Assembly: GCA_964016885.1 (NCBI GenBank)
Contig: OZ024747.1
Coordinates: 24,924,001-24,988,000, forward strand
Direction of reading: 5' to 3'
DNA: 64,000 bases
Source of the DNA: Eledone cirrhosa
Lineage: Eukaryota
Below, one piece after another: positions 5,170 through 64,000 of the stretch (position 1 is its first letter; the number at the start of each line of letters is the position of its first letter). The translations under genes were made by a program, and so were the position numbers. Under the pieces are notes generated by a model that was given only the letters and a program-made list of their open reading frames with translations, was not told the origin of the DNA and did not search any database.

Positions 5170-5738
5170 AGACAACATGCTTTGCAGCATAGAGTTCTGG
5201 CCCTTTACGTTCTGGGTTCAAATTCCGTGATGGTTGGCTTTGCCTTTCATCCTTACAGGGTCGATAAAATAAAGCACCAGTAATGCACTGGAGTAATTGC
5301 TGGCCTTGTGCCAAAAGTAGAAACAATTATTATTATTATCATTGAGGGCGATGGATTGTTAGTATCAGTAGAGCATCAGACAATATGCTTTGTGGCATAG
5401 AGTTACGGCCCTTTACATTCCGAGATCGAATCTTACCGAAGTTAGCTTTGCCTTTCATCCTTATGGGGTTGATAAATAAAGCACCAGTAATGCACTGGGG
5501 TCGATTTAATTGACTTTCCCCTCACCCCAAATCGCTGGCCTTGTGCCTATAGTAGAAATCATTATTATTATTATTGCTTTGACGCATAGAGTTATGGCCC
5601 TTGCCACTCTGAGTTCAAATCCCGCCGAGGTTAACTTTGCCTTTCATCCTTACGGGGTCGATAAAATAAAGTACCAGTAATGTACTGGGTAATTGCTGGA
5701 CTTGTGCCAATAGTAGAAACAATTATTATTATTATTAT
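5170..5738 (+). mobile_element. Three tandem Nin/Deu-like SINE copies
   Basis: Three successive core plus AGTAGAAAC/(ATT)n tail units ending near 5335, 5570 and 5735. Confidence 0.88.
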
Positions 5739-5779
5739 TCTCATCCCTGTCACTATTGACAATGGTGACTCTCATTATG

Positions 5780-6660
5780 ATGTCTCTTCGGTGCCTTTCC
5801 ACTCACTGGGCAGGTTACGATTCTAAAAGAGTGCAGCCATTCTTTGTTTGCTTCCTCCAATCACTTTAGTCTGCTGTCATGTTGACTGGTTGAAGTGGAA
5901 GGTGTTCAGATCCTCTCTGATGCAGTCCTTCCAGTGCTTCTGTAGGTGGCTTCTGATTCTCTTGCCATTTGCTAATTCACCAAACAGGAGCTAGTTTCGA
6001 ATGTGACTATCTTCCATTTGGCATATTTGGCCAAGTCATCTGAGACAGTTGTTCTGGATCATTGTTTCAGCCATAGCTGTCCTTGCATGACATAGAATCA
6101 TCTTATCTGAAGTATCTGCCACAAAGAAAGTTGATGGAAAGCTTCTAATTTGCATAGGTGGTGATCAAGCATGTGCCACATCTCACTGCAAACAACAGTG
6201 ATGGGAGAACGATGGCTTTGTACACTGTGAGTTTTGTTGAAACTGATAGGCCTTTGTAATTCCATACTGTGGCATTAAGAGAGTGGAAAGCAGCAGTACC
6301 ACAAGATATTCTGCACGTAATCTCTGAATTCATGGACAAATCATCAGACATATCTCCTCCAAGGTGAAATTAAGAGTGAAATCGTCAATCTTGGTTGGTT
6401 GTGGATTCACACAGCCAGCATACATGACCTCGGTTTTTGGCTTGCTAATTGTCAGCCCCTATTCTTTACAGGAATAATTCAAAGCAGTGGCTGTGTTTTG
6501 AAAAGAGCGTGCACTTGATTTAGCCATGTCTGTGTCATCTGCATAAAAGAAGTTACCCTGTCTTTACTTTGACTTAATGCAAATTGAAGAGGTTGCCATC
6601 AAGTTTGTAGCACACACCAATGATTAGGTGAGACCCGCTGATGAAGTCACATGGATTGAT
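5780..6660 (-). mobile_element. Degenerate RTE (BovB-like) RT 3' half
   Basis: Minus strand YADD near 6535-6546; ORF 6145-6351 contains GLSVSTKLTVYKAIVLPSLLF, typical of the RTE thumb region; several stops and frameshifts. Confidence 0.8.
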
Positions 6661-6934
6661 TGTGCATTATTGCATAATAAATGCAGACAATTGATGCTAT
6701 ACGCTCTCTTGCTATATTAAGTGTGACCGAAATTCAAGTACGGATATGAATTTATGGTACCCATTTACGTGTGTTGTATTGAAACATATAACCTTGCGTC
6801 TACTCTAGGATTTTTACATAACCTCACCTATTGAGTAGGCTGAGATGCAACTGGTACTAGCAGGGAAACCCTATGCTAGTCCCGTCAACTTATTATATAA
6901 ATAACAAAATAAGATGTTGAAGTTAATCGTTTAA

Positions 6935-6998
6935 TCATTATAATTATTTCCACGGTTCTCCATGCATTTGTTGTTATGAGAACGGTATCCTCAGATGA
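6935..6998 (-). ncRNA. Type I hammerhead ribozyme (long stem II, palindromic stem III)
   Basis: Minus strand TCAT-CTGAGGA-TACcGTTCTC...GAGAACcGTG-GAA-ATAATTAT-A-ATGA; stems I and II pair and the core is intact; AUA site. Confidence 0.7.
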
Positions 6999-7959
6999 AA
7001 TCTGATTTATTTGATATGCCGCCGGCAGGAATAAGCACACGTCCTTTAGCTCGTATTATACGGTTGTCCGTTTGATGGGACTGAACTTGAAACCATGTAG
7101 TTGCGAAGTGAACTCCTTAACCCATGTCTGTGCTTACAGTTACACTTCATTGGTAAATATTTTGAATCATCACAGCCGAAAGTACTAGGTGTGAAAAGGT
7201 TGAACTTAAAATTATTATAACTATCGACTATATCTCCACAAATAAAATAAATTTAAGGGAGATAACTTTCTCTTTCTTAATAGCTTCCCTTTGATTCATT
7301 AACTCATATTTTCAGTCATAAACACTCGTTTCATCTACAGCTTACTCAACTTTAGCAGTGATGCGCATATGTACCCATATACAATATAATATTGGTTTCT
7401 GATTTAGGCGCGAGGCCAACAATTTGGGGGGAAGGGAAAGTTGATCAAATCGACCCCAGTAAGTTACTGGTACTTTATTTTATCGACCTTGTAAGGATAA
7501 ATATAATAATAATAATACATTTAATCTTGGCGTATTTTAAGCTGCGATCAGAATAAACCCATATACGTATAATAAACATAGCGGCGAATTGGCAGAGTCA
7601 TTAGAACGTCAGATAGAATGTTTTATGATATTCATTCAAATCTCGCCGATGTCAACTATTTCTTTCATCCTTTCGAGGTCGATAAAAAGTACCAGTCTAG
7701 TACTGGGTGAATTCTTCCTCTATATCTCTTTCTCTCACTTCTATCTTTCTCTGGAAGAAATCTGCTGTACTCAGGTCTGGAGAGGCTTAAAATACCCTAG
7801 AAACGCCGTATGTCAATACAGCGCCCCTACGACTCTATCAGAAGTTACAGGACACATAATAAACATATAGTAAATGAACCTATATATATACGTTTATGAA
7901 TATTAAACTTATATTTAGTCTTGATTTTAGTAGCTTAATACTCGTGGGCCAGTGTCGTC

Positions 7960-8135
7960 AATAATTGTTTCTACTTTTGGCACTAGGCCAGCACTTTCCC
8001 CAGTGCATTACTGGTGCTTTATAGTCCCGTAAGGATGAAAGGCAAAGTTAACCTTGGCGGGATTTGAACTCAGAACGTAAGGGACCATAACTCTATGCTG
8101 CAAAGCATGGTGTCTGACGCACTATCGATAATGCC
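7960..8135 (-). mobile_element. Nin/Deu-like SINE copy
   Basis: Reverse complement of the 1931-2120 family; more decayed copies at about 7395-7500 (-) and 7580-7710 (+). Confidence 0.85.
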
Positions 8136-8609
8136 ACAAGGCTGATGTTATATGAACAATCATATAAACTGGAATATTTGAGTTTTGATAAATTAATGGT
8201 TTGCAGAAGAGAAACCCTATAGTATATGTTGATTATTGACATGTGCATATAATGTTCAGCAGATATGTAAATATGACGTGCTGAATAAATTGGAGAAATA
8301 GCTATCTATAGGGACAAATGAAGGGTTATAGCCAGGGACGTTATGATTGTAGCAACATGACTGATATAGGAAATACAGTGAGTGTAAATTTAAAAAAAAT
8401 AGACAGACGAACTGAGTTATTTCCCTTGAATTAGCAAACTTAGAATGTCTGTATATTTGTATGTGTATGTATTTTGTCATTCTTTAGTCCTAATCAGCCG
8501 CATTCTAACTCGAAAACATCCCATTTTCTTTAAATATACCTAGGACTACATTATCTAATGTGCCGTTCAATTTTTCAGATAGCAAGTGTAATTTAGCTGC
8601 TCTGCTTAA

Positions 8610-20770: not shown

Positions 20771-21879
20771 TCATCATCACATGTCCATACTATACCAGTG
20801 AAGTTTTCTCTCTTACATGCTACATCTGATTCCTACTATATTTAGTTTTTCTCTCAGCTCATTTATACATTGTCTTTTATGGACACTACCCATCCACTGG
20901 AGAATATTCATATATTTCTTTCTTGTCTTCACAAATCCCCTGCAGTCAAAACTTATGCAGCATTCCAGTTCAAATACAAGCATCATATAGTCTACCCTTC
21001 ACTTTGTCAGCCGTTAATTGCTCTCTGAACTTTTTCCAACCCTTCTTGCACTTCATGTTCTCTTAGTACTTATTGCCCCTGTGCATACACAGTTTGCCTT
21101 GTCTGTTAATGCATCTATAGTTTACACCACATTTACCACAGGAAATTTCTGCCCACTCCTTTTCAGCATGGCCATTTCCCTCATGATATAAAAGCCCTGT
21201 CTTTTCTCCTAGAAAGGTTCCTCCCAACCTTTTGTTTGGTAAGCTCTCTACAGCTGGATACCCTTTCTATGTTGCTTATGAATAATATGTTATATCTATG
21301 TTATTTATAAATAATTTATTATCCACTTGTAGAGCTGTTCTGTCAATAATGATTTCTAATTTCAGTAGAAGGCTTTCAATTTTGGGAGAGGGCAAAGTTG
21401 ATTATAATGACTCCATTTTTTTTACTGGTACTTTATTTCATTGATGGATGAAAAGCAAAGTTGACCTCAGTAGGATTTGAACTCAGAACAAATTGTGTGG
21501 AACATATCTGAATTTTGGAGCCTAAAATTGGTATGCCATATACACAAGGATTACCGGATATATGAACAATCATAGAAACTGGGAAATTTGCGTTTTGATA
21601 AATGAAAGGCTTACCTACTCTTCCCCCTTATTCATATGATTTTTTTCCCCTTTTCTCTCTGCCACCTTAGTCTTCCTGCCCATTTACATCCCTGATTCCG
21701 CCTTTCCTACCCAACCTATGCCAGTATGGAAAGAAGGGTGCACTTCACAATGTACTGCCGCACACCACCTATCCCTCTCTCTGGCAAGCAGCATTAGCCC
21801 CTTACGCTTGTTCCCCTATGATCCCCAATTAGGGCCTTCTCATGGTGGCCAAGGACACAATGAGTACCATAATGTTGAA

Positions 21880-22845
21880 AATGATAGTGATCGTGCCACA
21901 ATAAATGTACCGGCCCACTCTGTAAAGTGATAGTGCTGATGCCATGATAAATGCACCCAGCCCACTCTATAAAGTGATAGTGCTGATGCCATGATAAATG
22001 CACCCAGCCCACTCTATAAAATGATAGTGCTGATGCCATGATAAATGCACTCAGCCCACTCTATAAAGTGATAGTGCTGATGCCTCGATAAATGCACCCA
22101 GCCCACTCTATAAAATGATAGTGCTGATGCCACTATAAATGTACCCAGTCCACTCTATAAAGTGATAGTGTTGATGCCACTATAAATGTACCCAGCCCAC
22201 TCTATAAAATGATAGTGCTGATGCCTCGATAAATGTACCCAGTCCACTCTATAAAGTGATAGTGTTGATGCCACTATAAATGTACCCAGTCCACTCTATA
22301 AAATGATAGTGTTGATGCCACTATAAATGTACCCAGCCCACTCTATAAAATGATAGTGCTGATGCCTCGATAAATGCACCCAGCCCACTCTATAAAATGA
22401 TAGTATTGATGCCACTATAAATGTACCCAGCCCACTCTATAAAGTGATAGTGATGGTGCCACGATAAATGCACCCAGTCCACTCTATAAAGTGATAGTGC
22501 TCACGCCATGATAAATGCACCCAGCCCACTCTATAAAGTGATAGTGATGGTGCACCCAGTCCACTCTATAAAGTGATAGTGTTGATGCCATGATAAATGC
22601 ACCCAGCCCACTCTATAAAATGATAGTGATGGTGCCACGATAATAGCACCCAGTCCACTCTGTTAGTCGGTAGTGGTGATAACACAATAAAACACATGTG
22701 GTACATACTGTGAAGTTGTTAGTGTCATGAAGGGCATCTAACTATAAAAACTATGCTATGTCATCTGACATGTTTGGCCTTAGAACATGACAACTATCTA
22801 ACCCATGCAAGCATGGAAAATAGACATAAAACGATGATGATGATA
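21880..22845 (+). repeat. 47-bp minisatellite (about 17 copies) ending in the RTE tail module
   Basis: Unit CTATAAAGTGATAGTGCTGATGCCATGATAAATGCACCCAGCCCACT, followed by GAAGGGCATCTAA...CCATGCAAGCATGGAAAATAGACATAAAACGATGATGATGAT. Confidence 0.92.
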
Positions 22846-23089: not shown

Positions 23090-23136
<47 letters not shown>

Positions 23137-23324
23137 TGTGTGTATATATGTATATAGTGTGTGTATATATGTATATAGTGTGTGTATATATGTATATAGT
23201 GTGTGTATATATGTATATAGTGTGTGTATATATGTATATAGTGTGTGTATATATGTATATAGTGTGTGTATATATGTATATGTGTGTGTATATATGTGTC
23301 TATATATGTATGTCTATATATGTA

Positions 23325-23355
<31 letters not shown>

Positions 23356-23390
23356 GTGTATATATATATGTATATATATATATATATGTA

Positions 23391-23421
<31 letters not shown>

Positions 23422-23424
23422 GTA

Positions 23425-23513
<89 letters not shown>

Positions 23514-23532
23514 ATATGTGTGTATATATGTA

Positions 23533-23575
<43 letters not shown>

Positions 23576-23678
23576 ATATGTGTGTATATATATATATATG
23601 TATATGTATATATGTGTGTATATATATATATGTATATGTATATATGTGTGTATATATATATATGTATATGTATATATG

Positions 23679-23711
<33 letters not shown>

Positions 23712-23736
23712 GTGTGTATATATATATATATATGTA

Positions 23737-23830
<94 letters not shown>
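23090..23830. repeat. TA/TG compound microsatellite
   Basis: Directly visible. Confidence 0.95.
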
Positions 23831-23861: not shown

Positions 23862-26638
23862 AGTGGTGATGTCAATAAAATGCACTCACTATACTCTGTA
23901 AAGTGGTACTGCTGGTGCCATGATAAAATGCACTCACTATACTCTGTAAATTGGTAATGCTGGTGCCATGATAAAATGCACTCACTATACTCTGTAAAGT
24001 GGTACTGCTGATGCCATGATAAAATGCACTCACTATACTCTGTAAAGTGGTAATGCTGGTGCCATGATAAAATGCACTCACTATACTCTGTAAAGTGGTA
24101 ATGCTGGTGCCATGATAAAATGCACTCACTATACTCTGTAAAGTGGTAATGCTGGTGCCATGATAAAATGCATCCACTATACTCTGTAAAGTGGTAATGC
24201 TGGTGCCATGATAAAATGCACTCACTATACTCTGTAAATTGGTAATGCTGGTGCCATGATAAAATGCACTCACTATACTCTGTAAAGTGGTAATACTGGT
24301 GCCATGATAAAATGCACTCACTATACTCTGTAAAGTGGTAATGCTGGTGCCATGATAAAATGCATCCACTATACTCTGTAAAGTGGTAATGCTGGTGCCA
24401 TGATAAAATGCACTCACTATACTCTGTAAAGTGGTAATGCTGGTGCCGTGATAAAATGCACTCACTATACTCTGTAAACTGGTAATGCTGGTGCCATGAT
24501 AAAATGCACTCACTATACTCTGTAAAGTGGTAATGCTGGTGCCATGATAAAATGCACCCACTATACTCTGTAAAGTGGTAATGCTGGTGCCATGATAAAA
24601 TGCACTCACTATACTCTGTAAAGTGGTAATGCTGGTGCCATGATAAAATGCATCCACTATACTCTGTAAAGTGGTAATGCTGGTGCCATGATAAAATGCA
24701 CTCACTATACTCTGTAAATTGGTAATGCTGGTGCCATGATAAAATGCACTCACTATACTCTGTAAAGTGGTAATACTGGTGCCATGATAAAATGCACTCA
24801 CTATACTCTGTAAAGTGGTAATGCTGGTGCCATGATAAAATGCACTCACTATACTCTGTAAAGTGGTAATGCTGGTGCCATGATAAAATGCACTCACTAT
24901 ACTCTGTAAAGTGGTAATGCTGGTGCCATGATAAAATGCATCCACTATACTCTGTAAAGTGGTAATGCTGGTGCCATGATAAAATGCACTCACTATACTC
25001 TGTAAAGTGGTAATGCTGGTGCCATGATAAAATGCATCCACTATACTCTGTAAAGTGGTAATGCTGGTGCCATGATAAAATGCACTCACTATACTCTGTA
25101 AAGTGGTAATGCTAGTGCCATGATAAAATGCACTCACTATACTCTGTAAAGTGGTAATGCTGGTGCCATGATAAAATGCACTCACTATACTCTGTAAAGT
25201 GGTAATGCTGGTGCCATGATAAAATGCATCCACTATACTCTGTAAAGTGGTAATGCTGGTGCCATGATAAAATGCACTCACTATACTCTGTAAAGCGGTA
25301 ATGCTGGTGCCATGATAAAATGCATCCACTATACTCTGTAAAGCGGTAATGCTGGTGCCATGATAAAATGCACTCACTATACTCTGTAAAGTGGTAATGC
25401 TGGTGCCATGATAAAATGCATCCACTATACTCTGTAAAGTGGTAATGCTGGTGCCATGATAAAATGCATCCACTACATCCTGTAAACTGGTAATGCTGGT
25501 GCCATGATAAAATGCATCCACTATACTCTGTAAAGTGGTAATGTTGGTGCCATGATAAAATGCATCCACTACATCCTGTAAAGTGGTAATGCTGGTGCCA
25601 TGATAAAATGCACTCACTATACTCTGTAAAGTGGTAATGCTGGTGCCATGATAAAATGCACTCACTATACTCTGTAAAGTGGTAATGCTAGTGCCATGAT
25701 AAAATGCACTCACTATACTCTGTAAAGTGGTAATGCTGGTGCCATGATAAAATGCACTCACTATACTCTGTAAAGTGGTAATGCTGGTGCCATGATAAAA
25801 TGCATCCACTATACTCTGTAAAGTGGTAATGCTGGTGCCATGATAAAATGCACTCACTATACTCTGTAAAGCGGTAATGCTGGTGCCATGATAAAATGCA
25901 TCCACTATACTCTGTAAAGCGGTAATGCTGGTGCCATGATAAAATGCACTCACTATACTCTGTAAAGTGGTAATGCTGGTGCCATGATAAAATGCATCCA
26001 CTATACTCTGTAAAGTGGTAATGCTGGTGCCATGATAAAATGCATCCACTACATCCTGTAAACTGGTAATGCTGGTGCCATGATAAAATGCATCCACTAT
26101 ACTCTGTAAAGTGGTAATGTTGGTGCCATGATAAAATGCATCCACTACATCCTGTAAAGTGGTAATGCTGGTGCCATGATAAAATGCACTCACTATACTC
26201 TGTAAAGTGGTAATGCTGGTGCCATGATAAAATGCATCCACTACATCCTGTAAAGTGGTAATGCTGGTGCCATGATAAAATGCACCCACTATACTCTGTA
26301 AAGTGGTAATGCTAGTGCCATGATAAAATGCACTCACTATACTCTGTAAAGTGGTAATGCTGGTGCCATGATAAAATGCACTCACTATACTCTGTAAACT
26401 GGTAATGCTGGTGCCATGATAAAATGCACTCACTATACTCTGTAAAGTGGTAATGCTGGTGCCATGATAAAATGCATCCACTACATCCTGTAAGGTTGTT
26501 GGTGTTAGAAAGGACATCCAGCCATAGACAATATGGTACATATTAGCATGATGAGGTCTCTGTGACCTAACTCATCTTAGACTGTGGCAGCCTGTCCAAA
26601 CCATGCCAGAATAGAAAAATGTACGTAATGATGATGAT
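23862..26638 (+). repeat. 48-bp minisatellite (about 55 copies) ending in the RTE tail module
   Basis: Unit GTAAAGTGGTAATGCTGGTGCCATGATAAAATGCACTCACTATACTCT to about 26495, then GTTGTTGGTGTTAGAAAGGACATCCAGCC...ATGATGAT. Confidence 0.95.
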
Positions 26639-31374: not shown

Positions 31375-32538
<1,164 letters not shown>

Positions 32539-33137
32539 TGGTGGCTGCCAACTCGTTTTCGAGTACGGCCACTACTTTATATCCATGTAGGAGAACCCCT
32601 ACCGATGCGCTGAACGTGTGTGACTTTTTAGTCCAGCCAGCGACTTGAAAACTCTGGTACAAACGCTACACTTGTGACAATTATTGACACATAGTGCTGG
32701 GCCCTTGGTACCATGTGACGACAAGTGCAGAGAGATCTCCAGATATAAAGCAATGCCTGTGCCGTGAAGCTTTTATAGTGAGCAAAGGCACTGCACAAAG
32801 CCAGTCCCACTCTCTTAACCAAGATGATATTTACCAAAAAGAAGAACAAGTCAACATCATTGGATACCATCAGAGTTGCAGGTGTTATATCAGAGTTTTC
32901 CTTCTCCTAGAATTCTGCCTTGACAAAGGCTAAGGGGTCATCTCTCCCGGTGATTTTGGATGGCCATTGACTCTTAAGAGCTCCTTTGACAGGTTTTGTT
33001 TTTAGTCCTGCAGGATGTCCAAAGTCACCCTCCTCACCAAGAAACCTTGGTGGGGTTGCCAGTTTAGTCGCCAACGACCCGACCATGAGGCAGGTTGTAC
33101 TGGGATACATGTTACCAGTAGCACCAACTGGTGACCT
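32539..33137. mobile_element. Unclassified GC-richer insert bounded by TA-rich sequence; possibly a retroelement UTR
   Basis: Sharp composition change at both ends, several hairpins, no recognisable ORF. Confidence 0.4.
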
Positions 33138-33371: not shown

Positions 33372-37100
<3,729 letters not shown>

Positions 37101-37300
37101 NNNNNNNNNNNNNNNNNNNNNNNNNNNNNNNNNNNNNNNNNNNNNNNNNNNNNNNNNNNNNNNNNNNNNNNNNNNNNNNNNNNNNNNNNNNNNNNNNNNN
37201 NNNNNNNNNNNNNNNNNNNNNNNNNNNNNNNNNNNNNNNNNNNNNNNNNNNNNNNNNNNNNNNNNNNNNNNNNNNNNNNNNNNNNNNNNNNNNNNNNNNN
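37101..37300. other. Assembly gap (200 N)
   Basis: N run. Confidence 1.
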
Positions 37301-37965
37301 CGCCGCCTTGTTTTCTTTCCTACAAACTAGAACTTTGGTCTTAGCCAGGTTAATTTTAAGTCCTTTTGACTCTAGGCCGTGCTTCCATGTTTGGAATTTC
37401 TTCTCTAGCTCGGCCATTGATTCCGCTATGAGTGTCAGGTCGTCTGCGTATAGGAGTTCCCATGGGCAGCCTGTCTTGAACTCCTCTGTTATAGCCTGAA
37501 GGGCAATAATAAATAGTAGGGGGCTGAGAACAGAGCCCTGATGGACGCCAACTTTTACGCTAAACTCTTCACTATATTCGTTGTTAATTCTAACCTTGCT
37601 GACTGTTTCTTTATACATGGCTTGTATAGCCCTCACAAGCCATTCGTCAACGCCTAGTTTTCTAAGAGCCCACCAGATAATGGAGCGGGGGACTCTGTCG
37701 AAGGCTTTCTCCAAGTCGACAAAAGCTAAGTAGAGGGGTTTACCTTTAGCTAGGTACTTCTCCTGTAGTTGTCGTACTATGAAAAGAGCGTCTGTGGTAC
37801 TTTTGCCTGACACAAACCCGAACTGCATTTCATCTAGGTCAATTCTCTCTCTGATTAGTTGCGCTATTACTTTTTCTGTGACCTTCATGACCTGGTCGAT
37901 TAATTTAATGCCTCTATAGTTACTCCTATCTAGGGCGTCTCCTTTACCCTTATAACAGTTAACGA
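37301..37965 (-). mobile_element. 5'-truncated RTE LINE, open RT core
   Basis: Open frame with YRGIKL, QFGF, AFVDLEKAFDRV, GVHQGSVLSPLLF, LLYADD; starts at a (TA)n junction and runs into the gap. Confidence 0.95.
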
Positions 37966-47084
<9,119 letters not shown>

Positions 47085-49146: not shown

Positions 49147-52660
<3,514 letters not shown>

Positions 52661-52823
52661 AATATATAAGTAAGATGTATGGTAGGTCGTATGTGAATCG
52701 CGATGATCACGTCTGACCTACCAAATATGTGACGGTAGCTAGTTAAGCTCTATGCGTATACGCAGAGCAGAAATATTAGTGAAAAAGAACAAAGGAACTA
52801 TTATGACATTATAACAAGTTTAT

Positions 52824-52870
52824 TGCCGACAGCCGTTTCGTCCGACCCCATGGTGGGACTTTTCAAGGCA
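52824..52870 (-). ncRNA. Minimal hammerhead, U3-A8 core variant
   Basis: Minus strand TGCC-TTGAAAA-GTCC...GGAC-GAA-AC ggct GT-C-GGCA ATAAA. Confidence 0.8.
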
Positions 52871-53797
52871 TATAACATGTGATTTTAAGATCATTATTTA
52901 CATCAACGTATCACTCAAGGCTAGCAGTTTGAAATTGTGGTATACATCAGCAGCTCCGCTTGTATAGTTGGGGTCTATATTCTAAGGGGGCTCTTTTATA
53001 TTAGTTGTCGGGGTCAGGGATTGAAGGTTAAAAATTAGATAATATATAATTTACGCATTAACAGTAAACTAAAAGACTTGGGATCCCGTAGAAGCACCTT
53101 AAAAAATCCCTCAATAAGTGCATAAAGCTTACAGGCTCCAATAAACCTAATAAACTAGAAGAAATTAAGAGGCTAATAAAATAAAAAATAAAAATATAAA
53201 GTTTCCTATGAAATTCCTTCGAGAGGAAAAAAATTTTTTCCGAAAGAAAAAAACTTTCTTTCCCCGAGATCACGTTTACAAATTTCAGAAAACTTACGAA
53301 GTTTTGATATTCCCTACTAAGTTAAAAGAAACTAATCAATTAAAGGTTAATTCAAAGAGCCTTCTATAATTCTCTCAGAAAATGCCCCTTTAATATTTTT
53401 AATAGGAACTTCCTCCGAGAGACCCTTCGAAGAATTAAAATTTTAGAGAGCCTTAAAGGATATATATATAAAAACGAATTGAGGAAAATTATACATTAAA
53501 AGTTAAAAATTACGGTATTTGGGATATCCGAGGAATTTTCAAAGGGCTGCTTCAACAGATACAACTTAGGCATAATAGATACAATAATTTAAGTAATTTA
53601 AGTAATTTAATTAGGGAGCAATTCAAAGAGTTTATCAAGTTGGGCAAGATTAAAGAAAGTGGTAAATAAGAAAATGCATAAGCAAAAAGACAATAATTAT
53701 AAAATGTATTTTTAAGAAGGTATAAGGTAGCTTCAGTAATCTAACAATGTATTATCACAAAAAATTATTATAAAATTATTGATACAGGATTAACAAA

Positions 53798-54035
53798 GAC
53801 ATAATAATATATTCCTGCCTAATTAACAAGTAATCAAACCACTATTAACAGTCAGGCAAAATTAGCTCAGGGATATCCCGCGCTCGGATACTTTACACAC
53901 ATACAGCAACACATAGGATTAGCACAGACATAATGATATATTCCTGCCTAATTAACAAACAATCGATTAACAATTGATGGTTAAGAAAATGTACTCAGAG
54001 ATATCCCGCGCACGGATATTTACATACATACAACA
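53798..54035. repeat. About 128-bp diverged tandem duplication inside family B
   Basis: GACATAAT.ATATATTCCTGCCTAATTAACAA and CTCAG.GATATCCCGCGC.CGGATA each occur twice. Confidence 0.85.
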
Positions 54036-54451
54036 GGATGAACAGTACTGGTGACCGTGTGGGCGCGATATCCATTATGCGTATGTAGTCATCTGCATAG
54101 CTCCAGGCACAGCTGGTCTTGTTTAAAAGTTCATAGTTCACGGATCAACTGGGATTCAGTATCAGCTGCGTGGACTCTCTGGGAGATGTACCTGTGGATC
54201 TAATAGCTAGTGGTTGCTGGGTGTGATCCGTTCGGTCTTTTAGTTTCAGGGGTTGCACGCTTTCGCGATAGACCAGCCTGCCGGTTCTAAGTCCAAGGTC
54301 TCGCTACATAGGATGTATTGGTCTACATGCTATATTGGTAAAAAAAATCAGTGTGGATTTGACTGGGGTGGTATATTACGAACTCCAAGCTCACACGCGA
54401 CTGGTCAAAAGCGACGGGCTGTCCCCTCTTTGTTTGCTGTATGGGTCGGTT

Positions 54452-56584
<2,133 letters not shown>

Positions 56585-56585
<1 letters not shown>

Positions 56586-56778
56586 ACGAAGGAAATGTGG
56601 TAAGGAACCAAGTGGACCATAACGCACCAAAGTACTCAATACTTAGGGTAGTAGAGTGGGTCATAGGAACAAGTAAGACCCCGACGGCTGAGCTCAAGCC
56701 GTTTTGACGGTTAATTCTGGACTGAATAAAAATTTATTCTGGTATTTAAATAGGCGAGCTTGTCAAGGGGCAATTCCA
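56585..56778 (-). repeat. Inverted pseudo-LTR segment with a G12A-mutated hammerhead
   Basis: Reverse complement of 56931-57121; reads GTC-AAAAC instead of GTC-GAAAC. Confidence 0.9.
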
Positions 56779-56933
56779 GCTGTAGCCGGCACTACCAACG
56801 CTTGAATGGGTCTACTCCACCCCCTCTCCTTTTTTCTCCTACCGGCAGGTTTATCTACCCCTTCCCCCACCATTTTGCCATCACAGATTTACTACTAACT
56901 TGTGATGTGACCAATCCTGGTGTTTATCCCTTG

Positions 56934-57025
56934 CCCCTTGACAAGCTCGGCTATTTAAATACCAGAATAAATTTTTATTCAGTCCAGAATTAGCCGTCGA
57001 AACGGCTTGAGCTCAGCCGTCGGGG
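56934..57025 (+). ncRNA. Hammerhead, U3-A8 variant with extended stem II (5' pseudo-LTR)
   Basis: CCCC-TTGACAA-GctCGGCTA...TAGCCGtC-GAA-ACGGC ttgagctca GCCGT-C-GGGG. Confidence 0.78.
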
Positions 57026-57212
57026 GTCTTACTTGTTCCTATGACCCACTCTACTACCCTAAGTATTGAGTACTTTGGTGCGTTATGGTCCACTTGGTTC
57101 CTTACCACATTTCCTTCGTTATCTAGCTCCTATCCCCGTAGTAGAGCACTTTCCGACCTTACCACGCCGTATCCAGACTTTTCCGCTGCGCTCAATTTCT
57201 TTCACCCGCACC

Positions 57213-59359
57213 ATGCGAAAACACAACATCGACTTCTCTACCAAGAACATCCCAATCCCACCGAAAAAACTTTACCTTCGGATGCTCACGCAAAAAATCG
57301 ATCTATTTGCGAAAAGACTTAGATGGAGAACTTTTTTCTACGACAGATTTTGCGACAATCAGGACTTCGGTACCAAGGAGAGATTCGAATTTATTACCTA
57401 CAAATCTCCCCCCTCCCCCCGAACCATTTGCTCTCACCCTTCGAGAATGACCTCTTCCAACTGGTCAAGAACTTTAAATTCAAACCCAGACACAACCGAT
57501 TCCTACTAAAACTCCGTAGCAACTTAACAGAGTATGATAACACCAATGACATCATGGTGCATTCGGATAAAACTGGGAACCTATACTTTGTCAACCCCGA
57601 CAAATACCACACACTGATCAGGAGCAGCCTAAACTCCACCTATAAAAAGGCTAACCACTCATGCATCGGGGACATTAATCGAGATGGACAACAAATTACC
57701 TCCAGCCTCGGGGTCGCCGACCGCACCGAACCCCTAGACCCACGGATACCCTACTTCACACTGAAGGACCACAAATCCGATTTCGACCGTAAACCATCTA
57801 TCAGGCTTATAAACCCAACGAAGTCCGACATAGGGAGAATCAGCCAAAAAATCCTAGACCGCGTGATACCAAAAGTCAAGCAACACGCCCGACTTAGCCT
57901 ATGGATCAACACCCAGGGAGTTATCTCATGGTTCAGCAATATGGAGGATAAACGAGACACTAAATTTATCCAGTTCGACATAGAGAGCTACTATGCTTCT
58001 ATCACCTTACCGCTACCTACCCTCGCCGAAGCACTTGTGCCCATCACCGACCAGGAAAGAAAAATCCCCCTCCACGCCAGGAAGACAGTCTTACTCTTTG
58101 ACAACTCCAAATGGATAAAAAGAGCTCCCGGCTCACCCTTCGACGTCAGCATGGGCGCTACGGATTCGGCGGAGGTCACAGATCTTATAGGATTATTCCT
58201 TATAGCCAAACTCACCGATATGTTTCCTGCTTTCGGTGGTGGATTGTACCGTGATGATGGGCTCCTTACCCTCAAAGGGTACAACCCCAGTAGTACAGAT
58301 CGGGTCCGTAAACAATTAATCAGCTTCTTCCGCGACTGGGGATTTAAAATAACCCTACAAACGTCTCTGACCCGAGTTAATTTCCTGGACGTTACCCTCG
58401 ATCTCAATAATGACCTGTACTACCCATACAGGAAACCCAATGACAACCTGCACTACATCCACCGCCGATCTAACCATCCTAGGAACATCACCAACAACCT
58501 GGTCAAAAACATCTCCCTCCGCATATCCCATTTGTCAGCCAATGAGAAGATATTCGATGAACATGCGCCTTACTACAACCAGGCCCTCAAGCGGAGTGGC
58601 TTCCGGGAGGAAATATCCTACTGTCCAGCTCCCATTAGCGGAACCAGCAGGCGACACCGCCGCTCACGCAATGTAACATGGTTCAATCCTCCCCACAACG
58701 CCGAGGTGACAACTCCCATCAGGAAAATCTTCTTTAGGCTCATTGAAAAACACTTCCCACCACAACACCGCTACCACAACATAATTAACAAAAATACCAT
58801 CAAACTCTCTTACAGCACTACACCTAACTTCGCACAAAACATCGTCTCCTCCAACAACAAAAAACTCAACCCCGATGGAAGAAACAACCTAAATAGCAGT
58901 GGAGAGCCGACCAGGAGGTGCAACTGTCCTGATAGATCCATTTTCCCCCTCGACAACAGATGCAGAGACCGCAATGTGATCTACCAGTGGAACGTGAGCA
59001 CGGACACCTCCAACAAAGCTTATATTGGATTAACCGCATGTGACTTCAAGACCCGGCTATACCAACACAGACATACCTTCCGAAACCCGGCCCGGCGTCA
59101 CGCCACTACACTTTCGGGCCACATATGGGACCTCAAGGACAACAACATCAACTATGATTTCACTTGGAAATTACTGTCCAGAGCCAACTCTTACACGGGA
59201 GGACGCCGTCCGTGCAATTTATGCTCGGAGGAAACTATACAAATGTTGTTTTCGACGGACCAACTCCTAAATAAGAAAGATGAACTGGTTACTGCATGTA
59301 AACACCGATTACGTAGGACTTACCTCGCCCTCAAACCCCATAATGACCCGGGGGGGTAG
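57213..59359 (+). pseudogene. PLE ORF (RT plus GIY-YIG endonuclease) with one frameshift near 57408-57421
   Basis: N-terminus MRKHNIDFSTKNIPIP...KRLRWRTFFY in one frame, then DKTGN, IRLINP, QFDIESYYASI, MGATDSAEV, LYRDD, FLDV, CNC, VIY..YIG, CNLC and CKH in another; the shift lies in a C-rich run. Confidence 0.9.
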
Positions 59360-60545
59360 ACTAGGGCTATAACACCCCACTTGCCTATTTTGTAAGGGGT
59401 AACCCCTGCTTGCCAATGGAGACGTAAGACCTTTTATCGCTTCCTTTATATTTCCTCCTTACCCCCATCCCTCCCTAGCCCTTCTACCCCAGTTCCCTTT
59501 CTTTGTCGTCGTCTTTTTCTCGCCCACCCGAGGTAGCCCCTCGGTCCCTTGTCGCTTCAGCACCCCACCCCTCCCCTACTCTATGATAGATTTGGCTGAC
59601 TCCGCTTTTTATAGCAGAGGTGTTAGACTTCGGATACTTGCCCCCTTCTCCGACCGCTGTCCCTTTTTTCCGTGCCTTCTATATTTCTTAGTGGCATTTT
59701 TGCTTTAATTTTTCGTTTAACCAGTATTTCTTTCCTCTTTTCCATTTTTTTTTTTTGGGGGGGGGGGTTTCTGTATTAATTTTCCGTTCCTTACTTTTAC
59801 CTCGCACGATCTTTCATGTAGCCTGTATAAGACTTTTTGTTTCGTGGCGGTACCCTTAGAGTTAGCACGAGTATTTTTTTGCGGGACCCTGAATTATATT
59901 CTCGTACTAGTTTACCCTCTTGCTCTGGGTGGTTGCTGGCCCCGTGATCGGGGTAGAAACCTTTATTATTTCGTGGTAGTCTCTTTAGTATTTTGCCCCC
60001 CCCCCCCCTTGTCGACCCGTCACCGTACGATACACGCACTTATACCTCGTATAAGGGTCCCTCTATTTCCGTCCCACCTAGTTTATTTTCATTTATTTTT
60101 TATTCTTCATTATATATATATATATTTTTTTTTTTTTTTATTAAATTTATTTATCTATTCTTTTATTCACTTATTTGTTTATTTATTTATTTATGTATTT
60201 CTTTAGCCTAGCAATAGCGAGAGACTTAAGTCTTAGTAACCAGACCTTGCTTATTTTCTCTTTTCTCTCTCTCAGTACTTTTCATAGTTTTACCCTTCAT
60301 TGTTCTTACTTACCGTTTCGACTTCCTCCCCTCCCCCTCCCCTCCCCAGTATCCTCTTTGACCTGACACCCAGCTGTAGCCGGCACTACTAACGCTTGAA
60401 TGGGTCTACTCCACCCCCCTCTCCCTTTTTCTCCTACCGGCAGGTTCAGCTACCCCTTCCCCCACCATTTTGCCATCACAGATTTACTACTAACTTGTGA
60501 TGTGACCAATCCTGGTGTGTATCTCTTTGACCATATATGGAATTG

Positions 60546-60637
60546 CCCCTTGACAAGCTCGGCTATTTAAATACCAGAATAAATTTTTATTCAGTCCAAA
60601 ATTAGCCGTCGAAACGGCTTGAGCTCAGCCGTCGGGG
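60546..60637 (+). ncRNA. Hammerhead, U3-A8 variant (3' pseudo-LTR)
   Basis: Same motif as 56934-57025; predicted cut after GUC at 60633, about 18 nt before the TA tract. Confidence 0.78.
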
Positions 60638-60648
60638 TCTTACTTGTT

Positions 60649-60703
<55 letters not shown>

Positions 60704-60750
60704 TAAGGAAAAAGAACAAAGGAACTTTTATGACATTATAACAAGTTTAT

Positions 60751-60797
60751 TGCCGACAGCCGTTTCGTCCGACCATATGGTGGGACTTTTCAAGGCA
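60751..60797 (-). ncRNA. Minimal hammerhead, U3-A8 variant (left arm)
   Basis: Minus strand TGCC-TTGAAAA-GTCCcACCatatGGTcGGAC-GAA-ACggctGT-C-GGCA. Confidence 0.8.
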
Positions 60798-62602
60798 TAT
60801 AACAGGTAATTGTAAGTTCATCATTTTCATCAACGTTTCACTCAAGCTTAGCAGTTTGAAATCGTGGTATACATCAACAGCTCAGCTTGTTTATCTGGGG
60901 TCTATATTCTAAGGGGGCTCTTTTATAATAGTTGTAGGAGTTGTAAAAGGGATGGGTTAGAGGGAATTAAGAGAATTTGAAAAGGGCCTAAAAGTTAGGG
61001 ATTGAAGGTTAAAAATTAAAGAATTTATAAGTTACGCATTAAAAGTAAAAGACTTGAGATCCCCCAAAAGCACCTTAAAAAACACCTCAATAAGCGCATA
61101 AAGCTTATAAGCCCCAATAAACCTAAAAAAACAGAAGAGATTAAGAGAATAAAAAATAAAAAGTTTCCTAAAAAATTCCTTCAAAAAAGGTTTTCTAAAA
61201 AATTCCCTTAAAAAAATTTAAGAAAGTTTACGAAGATTTAATAATCCCTCCGAAAGTTCTAAACTTAAAAATTAAAAATTAGGGGAAAAAAAAAAAAATA
61301 CTTTCAAAAAGATTTAAGAGGTTAATAAAGTTAATGATTTAGGGAATCCATAATATAAAGATTAAGATTTAAGTTAGGATTTTAAGTTTAAGAGTTCCAA
61401 ACCCAGAAATTAAAAAATTTAATGAATTTAAGAAATCTTATATATCCAAGATTAAAAATTAGAGATTAAGAGGTTGAACATTAAATTTAAAAATTAAGAA
61501 ATAAATAGTTGAAAGAAATTAATCAATTAAAGGTTAATTCAAAAAGCCTTCAAAAAATCCCTCAGAAAAGGCCTCTTTAATATTTTTAATAAAAACCTCT
61601 TCCGAAAGACCCTTCAAAGAATTAAAAATTTAGAGAACCTTTAAATATATATATAAATGAATTGAGGAAAATTACAAATTACAAATTACGGAATTTGAGA
61701 GATCCGAGGAATTTCCAAAGGGTTGCTTCAACAGATACAACAATTTAGGTATAATAAATAAAGTAATTTAAGTAATCTAATTAAGGATCAATTCAAAGAG
61801 CTTATCAAGTTGGGCTCGAAGATTAAAGAAAATGATAAGTAAGAAAATATATAAGTAAAAAGACAATAATTATTGTATAATAATATTTACTTGATAAGCT
61901 CTTTGAATTGATCCTTAATTAGATTACTTAAATTACTTTATTTATTATACCTAAGTTGTTGTATCTGTTGAAGCAACCCTTTGGAAATTCCTCGGATCTC
62001 CCAAATTCCGTAATTTGTAATTTGTAATTTTCCTCAATTCATTTATATATATTTTTAAAGGTTCTCTAAATTTTTAATTCTTTGAAGGGTCTTTCGGAAG
62101 AGGTTTTTATTAAAAATATTAAAGAGGCCTTTTCTGAGGGATTTTTTGAAGGCTTTTTGAATTAACCTTTAATTGATTAATTTTTTCAACTATTTATTTC
62201 TTAATTTTTAAATTTAATGTTCAACCTCTTAATCACTAATTTTTAATCTTAGATATATAAAATTTCTTAATCTTAAATTCATTAAATTTTTAAATTTCTG
62301 GGTTTAGAACTCTTAAACTTCAAATCCTAACTTAAATCTTAATCTTTATATTATGGATTCCCTAAATCATTAACTTTATTAACCTCTTAAATCTTTTTGA
62401 AAGTATTTTTTTTTTTTTTCCTAATTTTTAATTTTTAAGTTTAGAACTTTCGGAGGGATAATTAAATCTTCGTAAATTTTCTTAAATTTTTTTAAGGGAA
62501 TTTTTTAGAAAAATTTTTTTGAAGGAATTTTTTAGGAAACATTTTATTTTTTTTATTCGTGAAACGTTGATGAAAATGATGAACTTACAATTACCTGTTA
62601 TA

Positions 62603-62649
62603 TGCCTTGAAAAGTCACACCATATGGTCGGACGAAACGGCTGTCGGCA
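62603..62649 (+). ncRNA. Minimal hammerhead, U3-A8 variant (right arm)
   Basis: TGCC-TTGAAAA-GTCacACCatatGGTcgGAC-GAA-ACggctGT-C-GGCA ATAAA; one extra stem II mismatch. Confidence 0.75.
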
Positions 62650-62842
62650 ATAAACTTGTAATAATGTCATAAAGTTCCTTTATTCTTTTTCCTTAATGTT
62701 TCTGATCTACAAAGTTCCTTTATTCTTTTTCCTTAATGTTTCTGATCTACTTATACGCATAGAGCTTAACTAGCTACCGTCGCATATTTAGTAGGTCAGG
62801 CGTGATCATCGCGATTTACGTACGACCTACCATACATCTTGC

Positions 62843-63212
62843 TAATATATATATAAATATATAAATATATATATATATGTATAAATATATAAATATATAT
62901 ATATGTATAAATATATATATATATGTATAAATATATAAATATATATATGTATAAATATATAAATATATATATGTATAAATATATATATGTATAAATATAT
63001 ATATATATGTATAAATATATATATGTATCTATAAATATATATATATATATGTATAAATATATATATATATGTATAAATATATATATATATATGTATAAAT
63101 ATATATATATATGTATAAATATATATATATAAATATATATATATATGTATAAATATATATATATATGTATAAATATATATATATGTATAAATATATATAT
63201 ATATGTATAAAT

Positions 63213-63244
<32 letters not shown>

Positions 63245-63337
63245 GTATAAATATATATATATATATGTATAAATATATATATATATATGTATAAATATAT
63301 ATATATATATGTATAAATATATATATATATATGTATA

Positions 63338-63368
<31 letters not shown>

Positions 63369-63393
63369 GTATAAATATATATATATATGTATA

Positions 63394-63427
<34 letters not shown>

Positions 63428-63435
63428 AATATATG

Positions 63436-63486
<51 letters not shown>

Positions 63487-63597
63487 AAATATATATATAT
63501 ATGTATAAATATATAAATATATATATATGTATAAATATATATATATATATATATATAAATATATATATGTGTATAAATATATGTATATATATATATG

Positions 63598-63631
<34 letters not shown>

Positions 63632-64000
63632 TAAATATATATATATGCAGCAGCAACAAACTCCCTCCTACACCAGTGGCCAACCTATACAGGCTGGAGA
63701 TAAAATGTGTAGCAACAAGGGCGGTGCCCCAGCATGGCCTCAGCCGGATGGCTGAAGCAGGTAAAAGAGTAAAAGAGTAAAAGAGTATGTATAAATATAT
63801 ATATATATATGTATGTATAAATATATATATATATATGTATGTATAAATATATATATATATATATATATGTATAAATATATATATATATATATATGTATAA
63901 ATATATATATATATATATATATAGATAAATATATATATATGTATAAATATAAATATATATATATATGTATAAATATATATATATATATATGTATAAATAT
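62843..64000. repeat. (TA)n satellite with TGTATAAA variants, interrupted by a SINE piece
   Basis: Directly visible. Confidence 0.95.
63647..63786 (+). mobile_element. SINE 3' fragment with (GTAAAAGA)n tail
   Basis: GGCGGTGCCCCAGCATGGCC...GTAAAAGAGTAAAAGAGTAAAAGAGT; related to 4800-4940. Confidence 0.7.

Follow-up and report, generated by a model that had tools for sequence, protein, structure and literature searches.

The question raised by this locus is whether a hammerhead motif that carries U and A, in place of the canonical C and G, at core positions 3 and 8 represents an established core of ribozymes borne by Penelope-like elements (PLEs), or a mutated form of the usual one. The window analyzed here, a 64-kb stretch of the Eledone cirrhosa genome (G000:C7:24924001-24988000; host genome 3.0 Gb, 1796 contigs), holds three such motifs, which had been picked out from the letters alone in a first-pass annotation. 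These three sites are probably minimal type-I hammerhead motifs with a U3-A8 core, located on 5′-truncated 3′ regions of PLEs, and are predicted to self-cleave after GUC (C17) only when paired via ACGGCUGU.

Three Hammerhead Motifs in the Window

A pattern search of the window, in which up to three mismatches were allowed, returned exactly three matches with 0 mismatches each (52828-52866 and 60755-60793 on the minus strand, 62607-62645 on the plus strand), and the pattern occurred 0 times in 100 dinucleotide-preserving shuffles. This confirms the three copies of TGCC-TTGAAAA-...-GAAAC-GGCT-GTC-GGCA annotated at 52824 (-), 60751 (-) and 62603 (+). The full layout of the motif is TATA-TGCC-TTGAAAA-GTCCCACC-loop-GGTCGGAC-GAAAC-GGCT-GTC-GGCA-ATAAAC, of which the core TTGAAAA, the stem I strands TGCC/GGCA and the segment GAAAC-GGCT-GTC are common to all three copies. 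The annotation held that the copies are identical in the core and in stems I and III and differ in the stem II loop (ATGG vs ATAT), which is correct, but stem II itself also differs, as copy 3 has GTCA for GTCC, a C-to-A change by which one pair is lost. Every copy has a C/C mismatch within stem II (GTCC-C-ACC / GGT-C-GGAC). The reported overlap of AATAAA with the 3′ strand of stem I was found as described, the hexamer beginning at the final base of that strand (GGCAATAAA), which is the base shared. The sequence ACGGCTGT is self-complementary solely when two G-U wobbles are permitted.

Read as a type-I hammerhead, the motif has an open stem I of 4 bp (UGCC/GGCA), a core of U3 U4 G5 A6 A7 A8 A9, a stem II of 4+3 bp with a 4-nt loop (GUCC/GGAC, the C/C mismatch, then ACC/GGU), and a stem III of 2 bp (A15.1-U16.1 and C15.2-G16.2) around GGCU, with C17 as the cut site. 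All invariant hammerhead positions besides 3 and 8 are kept, namely U4 G5 A6, A9, G10.1-C11.1, G12 A13 A14, A15.1-U16.1 and C17. As regards membership of the Rfam family RF00163, three helices surround the core with stem I open, and the Watson-Crick pair between positions 3 and 8 is present as U-A, the canonical C-G letters being absent. The Hammerhead_1 model aligned end to end with the motif of copy 1 (model positions 1-45), and score was lost at positions 3 and 8 and through the short stems.

The Family Consensus

A genome count of UUGANAA against CUGANGA, a check proposed together with the original annotation, shows that U3-A8 is the consensus of this family. With the family's own flanks held exact and the 7-nt core left free, the genome yielded 765 matches against 0 for the reversed control, 765 being a lower bound on family size. 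The core reads TTGANAA in 742 of these and CTGAAAA in 4, three of which lie inside 0.44 Mb of one chromosome, with 0 each for TTGANGA and CTGANGA; the other 19 carry different single changes, TTGGTAA, TTGAACA and TTAAAAA being among the 100 matches listed. The notion that the window copies are mutants of a CTGANGA consensus therefore fails. These counts are, however, counts of copies and not of independent events. In addition, a 141-nt query round copy 1 gave 1194 first-look candidates, and the 40 that were scored are 98-100% identical; since the copies are so young, conservation within the family is not itself evidence of selection. Both points count against a functional interpretation, along with those gathered further below.

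Three subfamilies were compared by aligning 27 copies, made up of 10 of the 30 earlier loci and 17 of 20 newly fetched ones (the other 3 lacked the anchor word and were dropped). Inside the motif, the columns diagnostic of a subfamily were N7, at which some subfamilies have A and another has T, and two positions of loop II only, all of which are free in the hammerhead model. This signal is weak, because the flanks are conserved about as well as the motif. At neither of the two core positions did an alternative letter reach 10% of depth in raw-read unitigs from four runs, among which copy 1's loop was a minority variant. The unitigs are short, very deep and DNA-like, with no joints and no shared ends, and cannot reveal RNA ends.

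Covariation of Positions 3 and 8

Across the genome, positions 3 and 8 covary cleanly. A single matched descriptor (xTGANxAG-N10-24-CGAAAC-N2-6-GTC), run with the four letter combinations and with reversed-pattern controls, gave 4608 matches for U-A (reversed control 64) and 5083 for C-G (16), vs 72 for C/A (25) and 62 for U/G (16). These figures, too, count copies rather than independent events. The C/A and U/G matches are plainly decayed copies from the paired families. The matches listed include at least six families of the U-A type whose stem II sequences are unrelated: GAUGGC...CCCAUC with ACCGGU; GCUU...AAGC with ACAAGU or ACAUGU, in 316-bp tandem arrays; GUAC...GUAC with ACAGCGCUGU; GGAG/CUCC or GGGG/CCCC with ACAAUUGU; GCCCG/CGGGC with ACGUACGU; and the three-copy family of the window. 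A palindromic helix III is found in nearly all of the U-A families listed, and ACUAGU is also seen in this genome.

It is possible, though short of probable, that U3-A8 is a fully equivalent core in this genome and perhaps even ancestral for a whole PLE clade, with relatives having flipped between U-A and C-G and intermediates almost absent.

Two retrozyme-like tandem arrays were also observed, one of 316-bp units with a U3-A8 hammerhead (TTGATAAGCTTCAAC...) at G000:C1:6519946-6521556, and one of 469-bp units with a canonical hammerhead (CTGATGAGATGTAATAACATC...) at G000:C1:14044535-14051131.

The Carrier Element

The family is PLE-borne, with an element of ~5.4 kb. The marks of PLEs given by Craig et al. 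(2021, PMC8557442) include 5′ truncation, partial tandems known as pseudo-long terminal repeats (pLTRs), a 5′-side inverted truncated copy, a tail beyond the repeat and a bias toward insertion in microsatellites, with hammerheads typically located in the pLTRs. The present family shows 5′ truncation, pLTRs, an adjacent inverted truncated copy (window copies 2 and 3) and the microsatellite insertion bias. The sequence 3′ of the motif is common to all of 30 loci (3.1 kb each) and the upstream reach is variable, which is the pattern of a 5′-truncated retroelement. When the first 100 genome hits were checked for neighbours no more than 10 kb away, the arrangement was -/+ in 12 cases and +/- in 0 (p = 0.0005), and five same-strand pairs are spaced at 3.6-5.9 kb.

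Two discrete 3′ ends are found in the 30 loci, a short one (...CACTAATAT) ~50 nt past the cut site in 16 and a long one (...CATCTTACT) ~155 nt past it in 14. Both lie at UA-rich spots (oriented loci positions 1643-1752) and both adjoin (TA)n, TA/AT repeats being present within a few bases 3′ in 29 of the 30 loci; the exception, L021, is fused to the 5′ start of a full-length copy. Two such ends beside (TA)n fit internal initiation of reverse transcription, and priming by (TA)n target DNA at UA-rich sites inside the RNA would fit the presence of both. In the window, the fragment with copy 1 starts ~0.9 kb past the open reading frame (ORF) stop of the full-length element and has the long 3′ end, adjoining (AT)n at 52554-52668; that with copy 2 has the short end (...CCTTAATA) and adjoins (TA)n at 60654-60700; and that with copy 3 has the long end, beyond which AT-rich repeats start at 62844. 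An exact 40-nt tandem duplication (62671-62750) is also present in the copy 3 tail, just past the hammerhead.

In the full-length copy (G000:C3, loci L021-L036-L020), two same-orientation motifs 5.4 kb apart flank a 700-amino-acid (aa) ORF, giving a pLTR-ORF-pLTR arrangement in which the hammerhead is ~2.6 kb downstream of the ORF stop and precedes the next ORF by ~240 nt. The ORF in L036 is split near its N-terminal quarter, a 200-aa upstream piece being in another frame (5602-6201 vs 6132-8231), which suggests either a frameshift in that copy or a retained intron, and PLEs are known to retain introns (PMC8557442). An AlphaFold2 model of the ORF, built with 17 homologues, is confident over most of residues 50-320 (predicted local distance difference test mostly 84-96, dipping to 58-70 at ~131-160) and also over ~570-680. 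The model matches reverse transcriptases (RTs), among them DRT9, telomerase, group II intron RT and retron RT, with 47 matches at E <= 0.001, and the ORF contains a YRDD motif. As modelled, the ORF has an RT fold. Pfam found no RT in either PLE ORF (that of the full-length family element or the 678-aa ORF of the window), and the PDB sequence profile of the ORF likewise returned no RT, with a single irrelevant weak match. The Pfam match to GIY-YIG at the C-terminus is weak (18.4 bits vs a cut-off of 22.6, E = 0.0027); C559, C561, P568, Y580, Y593, G595, R604 and H608 are nearly invariant in the 17 homologues, and a Cys-rich stretch precedes the conserved C-terminal columns. The features of the window are collected in Table 1.

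Table 1. Positions of hammerhead motifs, Penelope-like elements and other repeats in the window.
Feature	Position	Strand	Description
Hammerhead motif copy 1	52824..52870	-	Loop ATGG; stem I 5′ strand TGCC 52870-52867; core TTGAAAA 52866-52860
Copy 1, 3′ part	C17 at 52828; stem I 3′ strand GGCA 52827-52824	-	GAAAC-GGCT-GTC
Copy 1, predicted cut (from sequence)	between 52828 and 52827	-	
Hammerhead motif copy 2	60751..60797	-	Loop ATAT
Hammerhead motif copy 3	62603..62649	+	Loop ATAT; stem II mismatch GTCA
PLE fragment with copy 1	52669..54450	-	5′-truncated; ~1.8 kb of 3′ untranslated region
PLE fragment with copy 2	60701..61875	-	5′-truncated; left arm of head-to-head inverted pair
PLE fragment with copy 3	61889..62843	+	5′-truncated; right arm of inverted pair; arm lengths unequal
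Different full-length PLE (first family of the first-pass annotation)	56663..60653	+	Uninterrupted 678-aa ORF 57323-59359
Repeats of the different PLE	56776-57025, 60370-60637; 56663-78		Direct pLTRs; inverted 5′-side partial copy (116 nt)
Hammerhead-like motif of the different PLE	~56935-57025, ~60547-60637		CCCC-TTGACAA...GAAAC-GGCT-TGAGCTC-AGCC-GTC-GGGG in both pLTRs
Long interspersed nuclear element (LINE)	50051-52549	-	5′-truncated; RVT_1 (E = 7.6e-31) and a remnant of Exo_endo_phos_2; immediately downstream of copy 1, with (AT)n between them
(AT)n array	33374-47082		Nearly pure, 13.7 kb; GC below 1% over 38-46 kb
Further AT arrays	23093-23825, 31376-32539, 49149-49945, 54453-56586, 62844-64000		
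Satellite, 48-bp	23875-26483		54 copies, 95% matches
Satellite, 47-bp	21878-22661		17 copies

Related PLE Lineages

The suggestion made from the window, that U3-A8 is established in more than one PLE-linked lineage, is supported by at least two further families. The first is the different full-length PLE of the window, whose ORF shares 46% identity with that of the three-copy family in the RT core and 36% in the C-terminal part. Its UUGACAA motif, in which a GAGCUC loop caps a helix III of 6 bp, occurs in 6 exact-flank genome copies (5 UUGACAA, 1 UUGAGAA). This motif is less certain, because no Rfam hammerhead match was found at E <= 10 over 56650-57100 and its minimum-energy fold is a different structure, not a hammerhead. 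The second is a PLE of a distant clade (4.885 kb; L037, L038 and L053 on G000:C1), which has YLDD, a GIY-YIG-like C-terminus and an ORF broken into three frames, and is flanked by UUGAAAA-GAUGGC...CCCAUC-GAAAC-CG-GUC motifs, the most frequent U3-A8 family among the matches listed.

A fragment of the window's other PLE, comprising its hammerhead end and TA repeats, was also seen directly upstream of the full-length copy of the three-copy family on another chromosome (L036 4974-5213 vs window 56560-57125 and 60593-60710), and so the two PLE families repeatedly land in the same (TA)n tracts.

The closest relative found is a sister lineage (L049; G000:C1:37710200-37718000), the ORF of which has 61-73% RT amino-acid identity with that of the three-copy family. 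Its pLTR motif, GCU-CUGAUGA-GUCCUGCA-AUUA-UGCAAGGAC-GAAAC-ACU-GUC-AGC-AAAUAAA, lies in a -/+ pair of pLTR fragments just upstream of the ORF, the (-) copy being intact and the (+) copy reading GCAAC. The architecture and position are homologous (stem I GCY/RGC followed by AAUAA, stem II GUCC...GGAC, then GAAAC-NNN(N)-GUC), and the 5′ start of the element is similar (GCTCCC...GGTAGAG). The sister motif differs, however, in having a CUGAUGA core (C3-G8), a U-A instead of a C-G pair at 1.1-2.1 of stem I, and an ACU-type helix III loop. When six motifs from four families were aligned, 97% of cells paired, vs 21-50% with the partners slid by 1-3 columns, and changes on both sides of a pair were found at 1.1-2.1 of stem I (C-G in 4, U-A in 2) and at 3-8 (C-G in 3, U-A in 3).

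An RT phylogeny, the other check proposed with the annotation, was built as a query-anchored tree of 10 ORFs (686 of 700 columns), from which L037 and L038 were omitted because tblastn with the ORF of the three-copy family found nothing there at E <= 1e-3. Three copies of the three-copy family lie next to the pair of L049 and L044 (support 79/92), and the window's other PLE is paired with L039 (89/99); no branch among the 10 ORFs is at star level. On this tree the 3-8 state must have changed at least once, and a single change suffices. The core pair has therefore flipped between U-A and C-G at least once among close PLE lineages, which implies neither direction nor recurrence, and several origins are unsupported.

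Several candidates were set aside or qualified. A claim of two or more independent 3-8 switches was dropped, as one change is enough on the 10-ORF tree and none of its branches is starred. The canonical 469-bp hammerhead unit at L039 was rejected as part of the adjacent PLE ORF, since an (AT)15 run lies between them and the unit begins inside the hammerhead. For the L045 ORF, an associated hammerhead was looked for at the locus and not found, and for L044 the link between ORF and hammerhead, which are 1.9 kb apart with no TA run between, is likely and rests on one copy.

Predicted Dimerization and Cleavage

In the published model for PLE hammerheads, two motifs form a double hammerhead via a shared helix III, the monomer being inactive and multimeric or paired RNA cutting itself (PMC4209133). 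The annotation's reading of stem III as 2 bp within a near-palindrome does match the published dimer-type PLE hammerheads. Self-pairing of ACGGCUGU gives 8 bp, two of them G-U, and RNAcofold, given two RNAs of copy 1, returns the double hammerhead as the minimum-energy structure (-40.1 kcal/mol), with stems I and III both formed between the two molecules. Dimer cleavage of PLE hammerheads was reportedly described in 2017 by Lünse, Weinberg and Breaker.

On the reading preferred here, two motifs brought together by a read-through or tandem transcript, or by two transcripts, would share an intermolecular helix III of 8 bp, two of them G-U, and their stems I would be intermolecular as well; in the core, U3-A8 would be an isosteric stand-in for the Watson-Crick pair C3-G8. 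Each of the two resulting active sites would cut GUC|GGCA to leave a 2′,3′-cyclic phosphate and a 5′-OH, and such cutting would trim multimeric PLE RNA. We infer the cleavage, the dimer requirement and the biological role alike.

A number of observations weigh against this reading. There was no Rfam match at gathering score anywhere in the window, Hammerhead_1 (RF00163) scoring 20.1 bits vs a cut-off of 34 (E = 0.02 in E-value mode over 301 nt), stem I is merely 4 bp long, and no loop-loop tertiary contact is present. The minimum-energy fold of the monomer is not a hammerhead (-15.1 vs -11.6 kcal/mol for the hammerhead fold), and for copies 2 and 3 cofolding gave as its optimum a duplex of stem II between the two molecules, formed through the palindromic stem II loop, and not the double hammerhead. 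The dimerization gain of -9.9 was matched by 51 of 200 shuffles; as it is not beyond that of shuffles, thermodynamics does not separate the models. All 30 of the 30 genome copies examined extend 50-155 nt past the cut site. Because the copies contain the motif and continue beyond it, the RNA that was reverse-transcribed was uncut at the 3′ hammerhead, and cleavage is not what defines the ends of inserted copies; nor was the copied RNA polyadenylated at AATAAA, as the copies continue for 50-155 nt beyond this hexamer and terminate in (TA)n rather than in A-tails. Among known elements, PLE minimal hammerheads cut poorly in vitro (PMC4209133), and in the one PLE studied biochemically, that of Anolis, insertion in vitro did not require cleavage and the hammerhead site showed no RNA-seq ends (PMC11167929).

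In an alternative reading, the hammerhead-shaped fold would be kept as a structural or recognition element, for example for the complex of RT and endonuclease (EN) or for RNA folding near the start of reverse transcription, with negligible cleavage in vivo. Inserted copies always hold an intact motif and their tail, so the RNA copied was uncut; insertion of the Anolis PLE without need of cleavage and without RNA ends at the site (PMC11167929), the poor in vitro activity of minimal PLE motifs (PMC4209133) and the preference of the monomer for another fold all point the same way. We nevertheless regard this explanation as rather unlikely, as the 3-8 pair belongs to the catalytic core and not to a helix, yet strictly covaries (4608 + 5083 vs 72 + 62), and 742 of 765 copies retain every letter of the catalytic core. 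Such covariation and core retention are most simply explained by selection for active-site geometry.

That the motif is an inert passenger, a relic hammerhead in a recently amplified element whose U3-A8 would be two fixed inactivating or weakening mutations conserved through youth, is improbable. The near identity of the copies (98-100%) and the equal conservation of flanks and motif between subfamilies would agree with such a relic, and hammerheads may simply parasitize PLEs, some clades of which thrive without them (Craig et al. 2021, PMC8557442). Against this, two changes that exactly restore a Watson-Crick pair are unlikely to arise by drift, the sister lineage has C-G at both positions, and the single-mismatch classes amount genome-wide to ~1% of either paired class. 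Moreover, the at least six unrelated U3-A8 families keep the remaining core letters and the palindromic helix III, and ribozymes with covarying positions 3 and 8 are active in vitro (PMC3088659). A chance resemblance in AT-rich repeat DNA is very improbable, for although the score falls under the Rfam threshold and short hammerhead descriptors match randomly in large genomes (PMC3088659), the reversed controls (0 vs 765 and 64 vs 4608), the compensatory changes across families and a position exactly where PLE hammerheads are known all speak against it.

Relation to Known Systems

U3-A8 hammerheads are already known in nature, from 2011, and in PLE pLTRs, from 2014. The pair is a natural hammerhead variant, and in vitro activity had been proven before for ribozymes in which positions 3 and 8 covary (Perreault et al. 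2011, PMC3088659). The motif of the window has the identical compensatory swap of the core pair, but the hammerheads of that study come from varied genomes, are not tied to PLEs and are apparently full rather than minimal and dimer-type (PMC3088659).

Minimal hammerheads with U3-A8 have been described in the pLTRs of the Cercyon PLE of Schistosoma mansoni, for which dimers were proposed (Cervera and de la Peña 2014, PMC4209133), and the cores UUGAAAA and UUGAUAA are printed in supplementary file 2 of that paper. The window family shares with Cercyon the replacement of C3-G8 by U3-A8, the pLTR location, a short or absent palindromic helix III and the proposed dimer, and the ~1,300 S. mansoni copies, mostly single and often paired on opposite strands, are a further likeness (PMC4209133). 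The host and the PLE family are different, however, and the window motif is without the extra nucleotide between A9 and G10.1, has a helix III with a 4-nt GGCU loop and two G-U pairs in the dimer helix, and opens its stem II with the common animal GUCC/GGAC; in this genome, furthermore, U3-A8 is about as numerous as the canonical pair (4608 vs 5083).

For the Poseidon PLE PAc of Anolis carolinensis, uncleaved RNA is reported to be the main substrate, and an internal start of reverse transcription leaves a tail (Frangieh et al. 2024, PMC11167929). The two systems are similar in having a pLTR hammerhead, in a PLE that is EN-containing (EN+) in Anolis and putatively so in the window family, inserted copies with a tail past the motif and insertion of uncleaved RNA, and differ in placement, the hammerhead of the window family lying relative to the ORFs as given above. 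Animal non-LTR retrozymes share type-I hammerheads, a short palindromic helix III and the link to PLE machinery (Cervera and de la Peña 2020, PMC7229834; 10.64898/2026.07.22.740005), and the 316-bp (U3-A8) and 469-bp (canonical) tandem arrays of this genome are of that kind. The window copies, on the other hand, are single 1-1.8-kb 3′-UTR (untranslated region) fragments of a coding 5.4-kb PLE, and not short tandem non-coding units (~170-600 bp). A term search found no mention of U3-A8 in the available part of the preprint 10.64898/2026.07.22.740005.

The present analysis contributes a new family, shows that the two cores are nearly equally common within a single genome and that positions 3 and 8 covary cleanly there, and identifies a sister lineage that has the canonical pair. 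Searches relying on Rfam thresholds or on CUGANGA descriptors overlook about half of the hammerheads of this genome, and the main uses of the finding are in annotation and in the choice of constructs for cleavage assays, current understanding being unchanged. As for the biology of PLEs, the copies confirm that insertion draws on RNA that passes uncut through the hammerhead. If U3-A8 were indeed an equivalent and possibly ancestral core, this genome would be a natural record of a catalytic-core pair drifting through a fitness valley.

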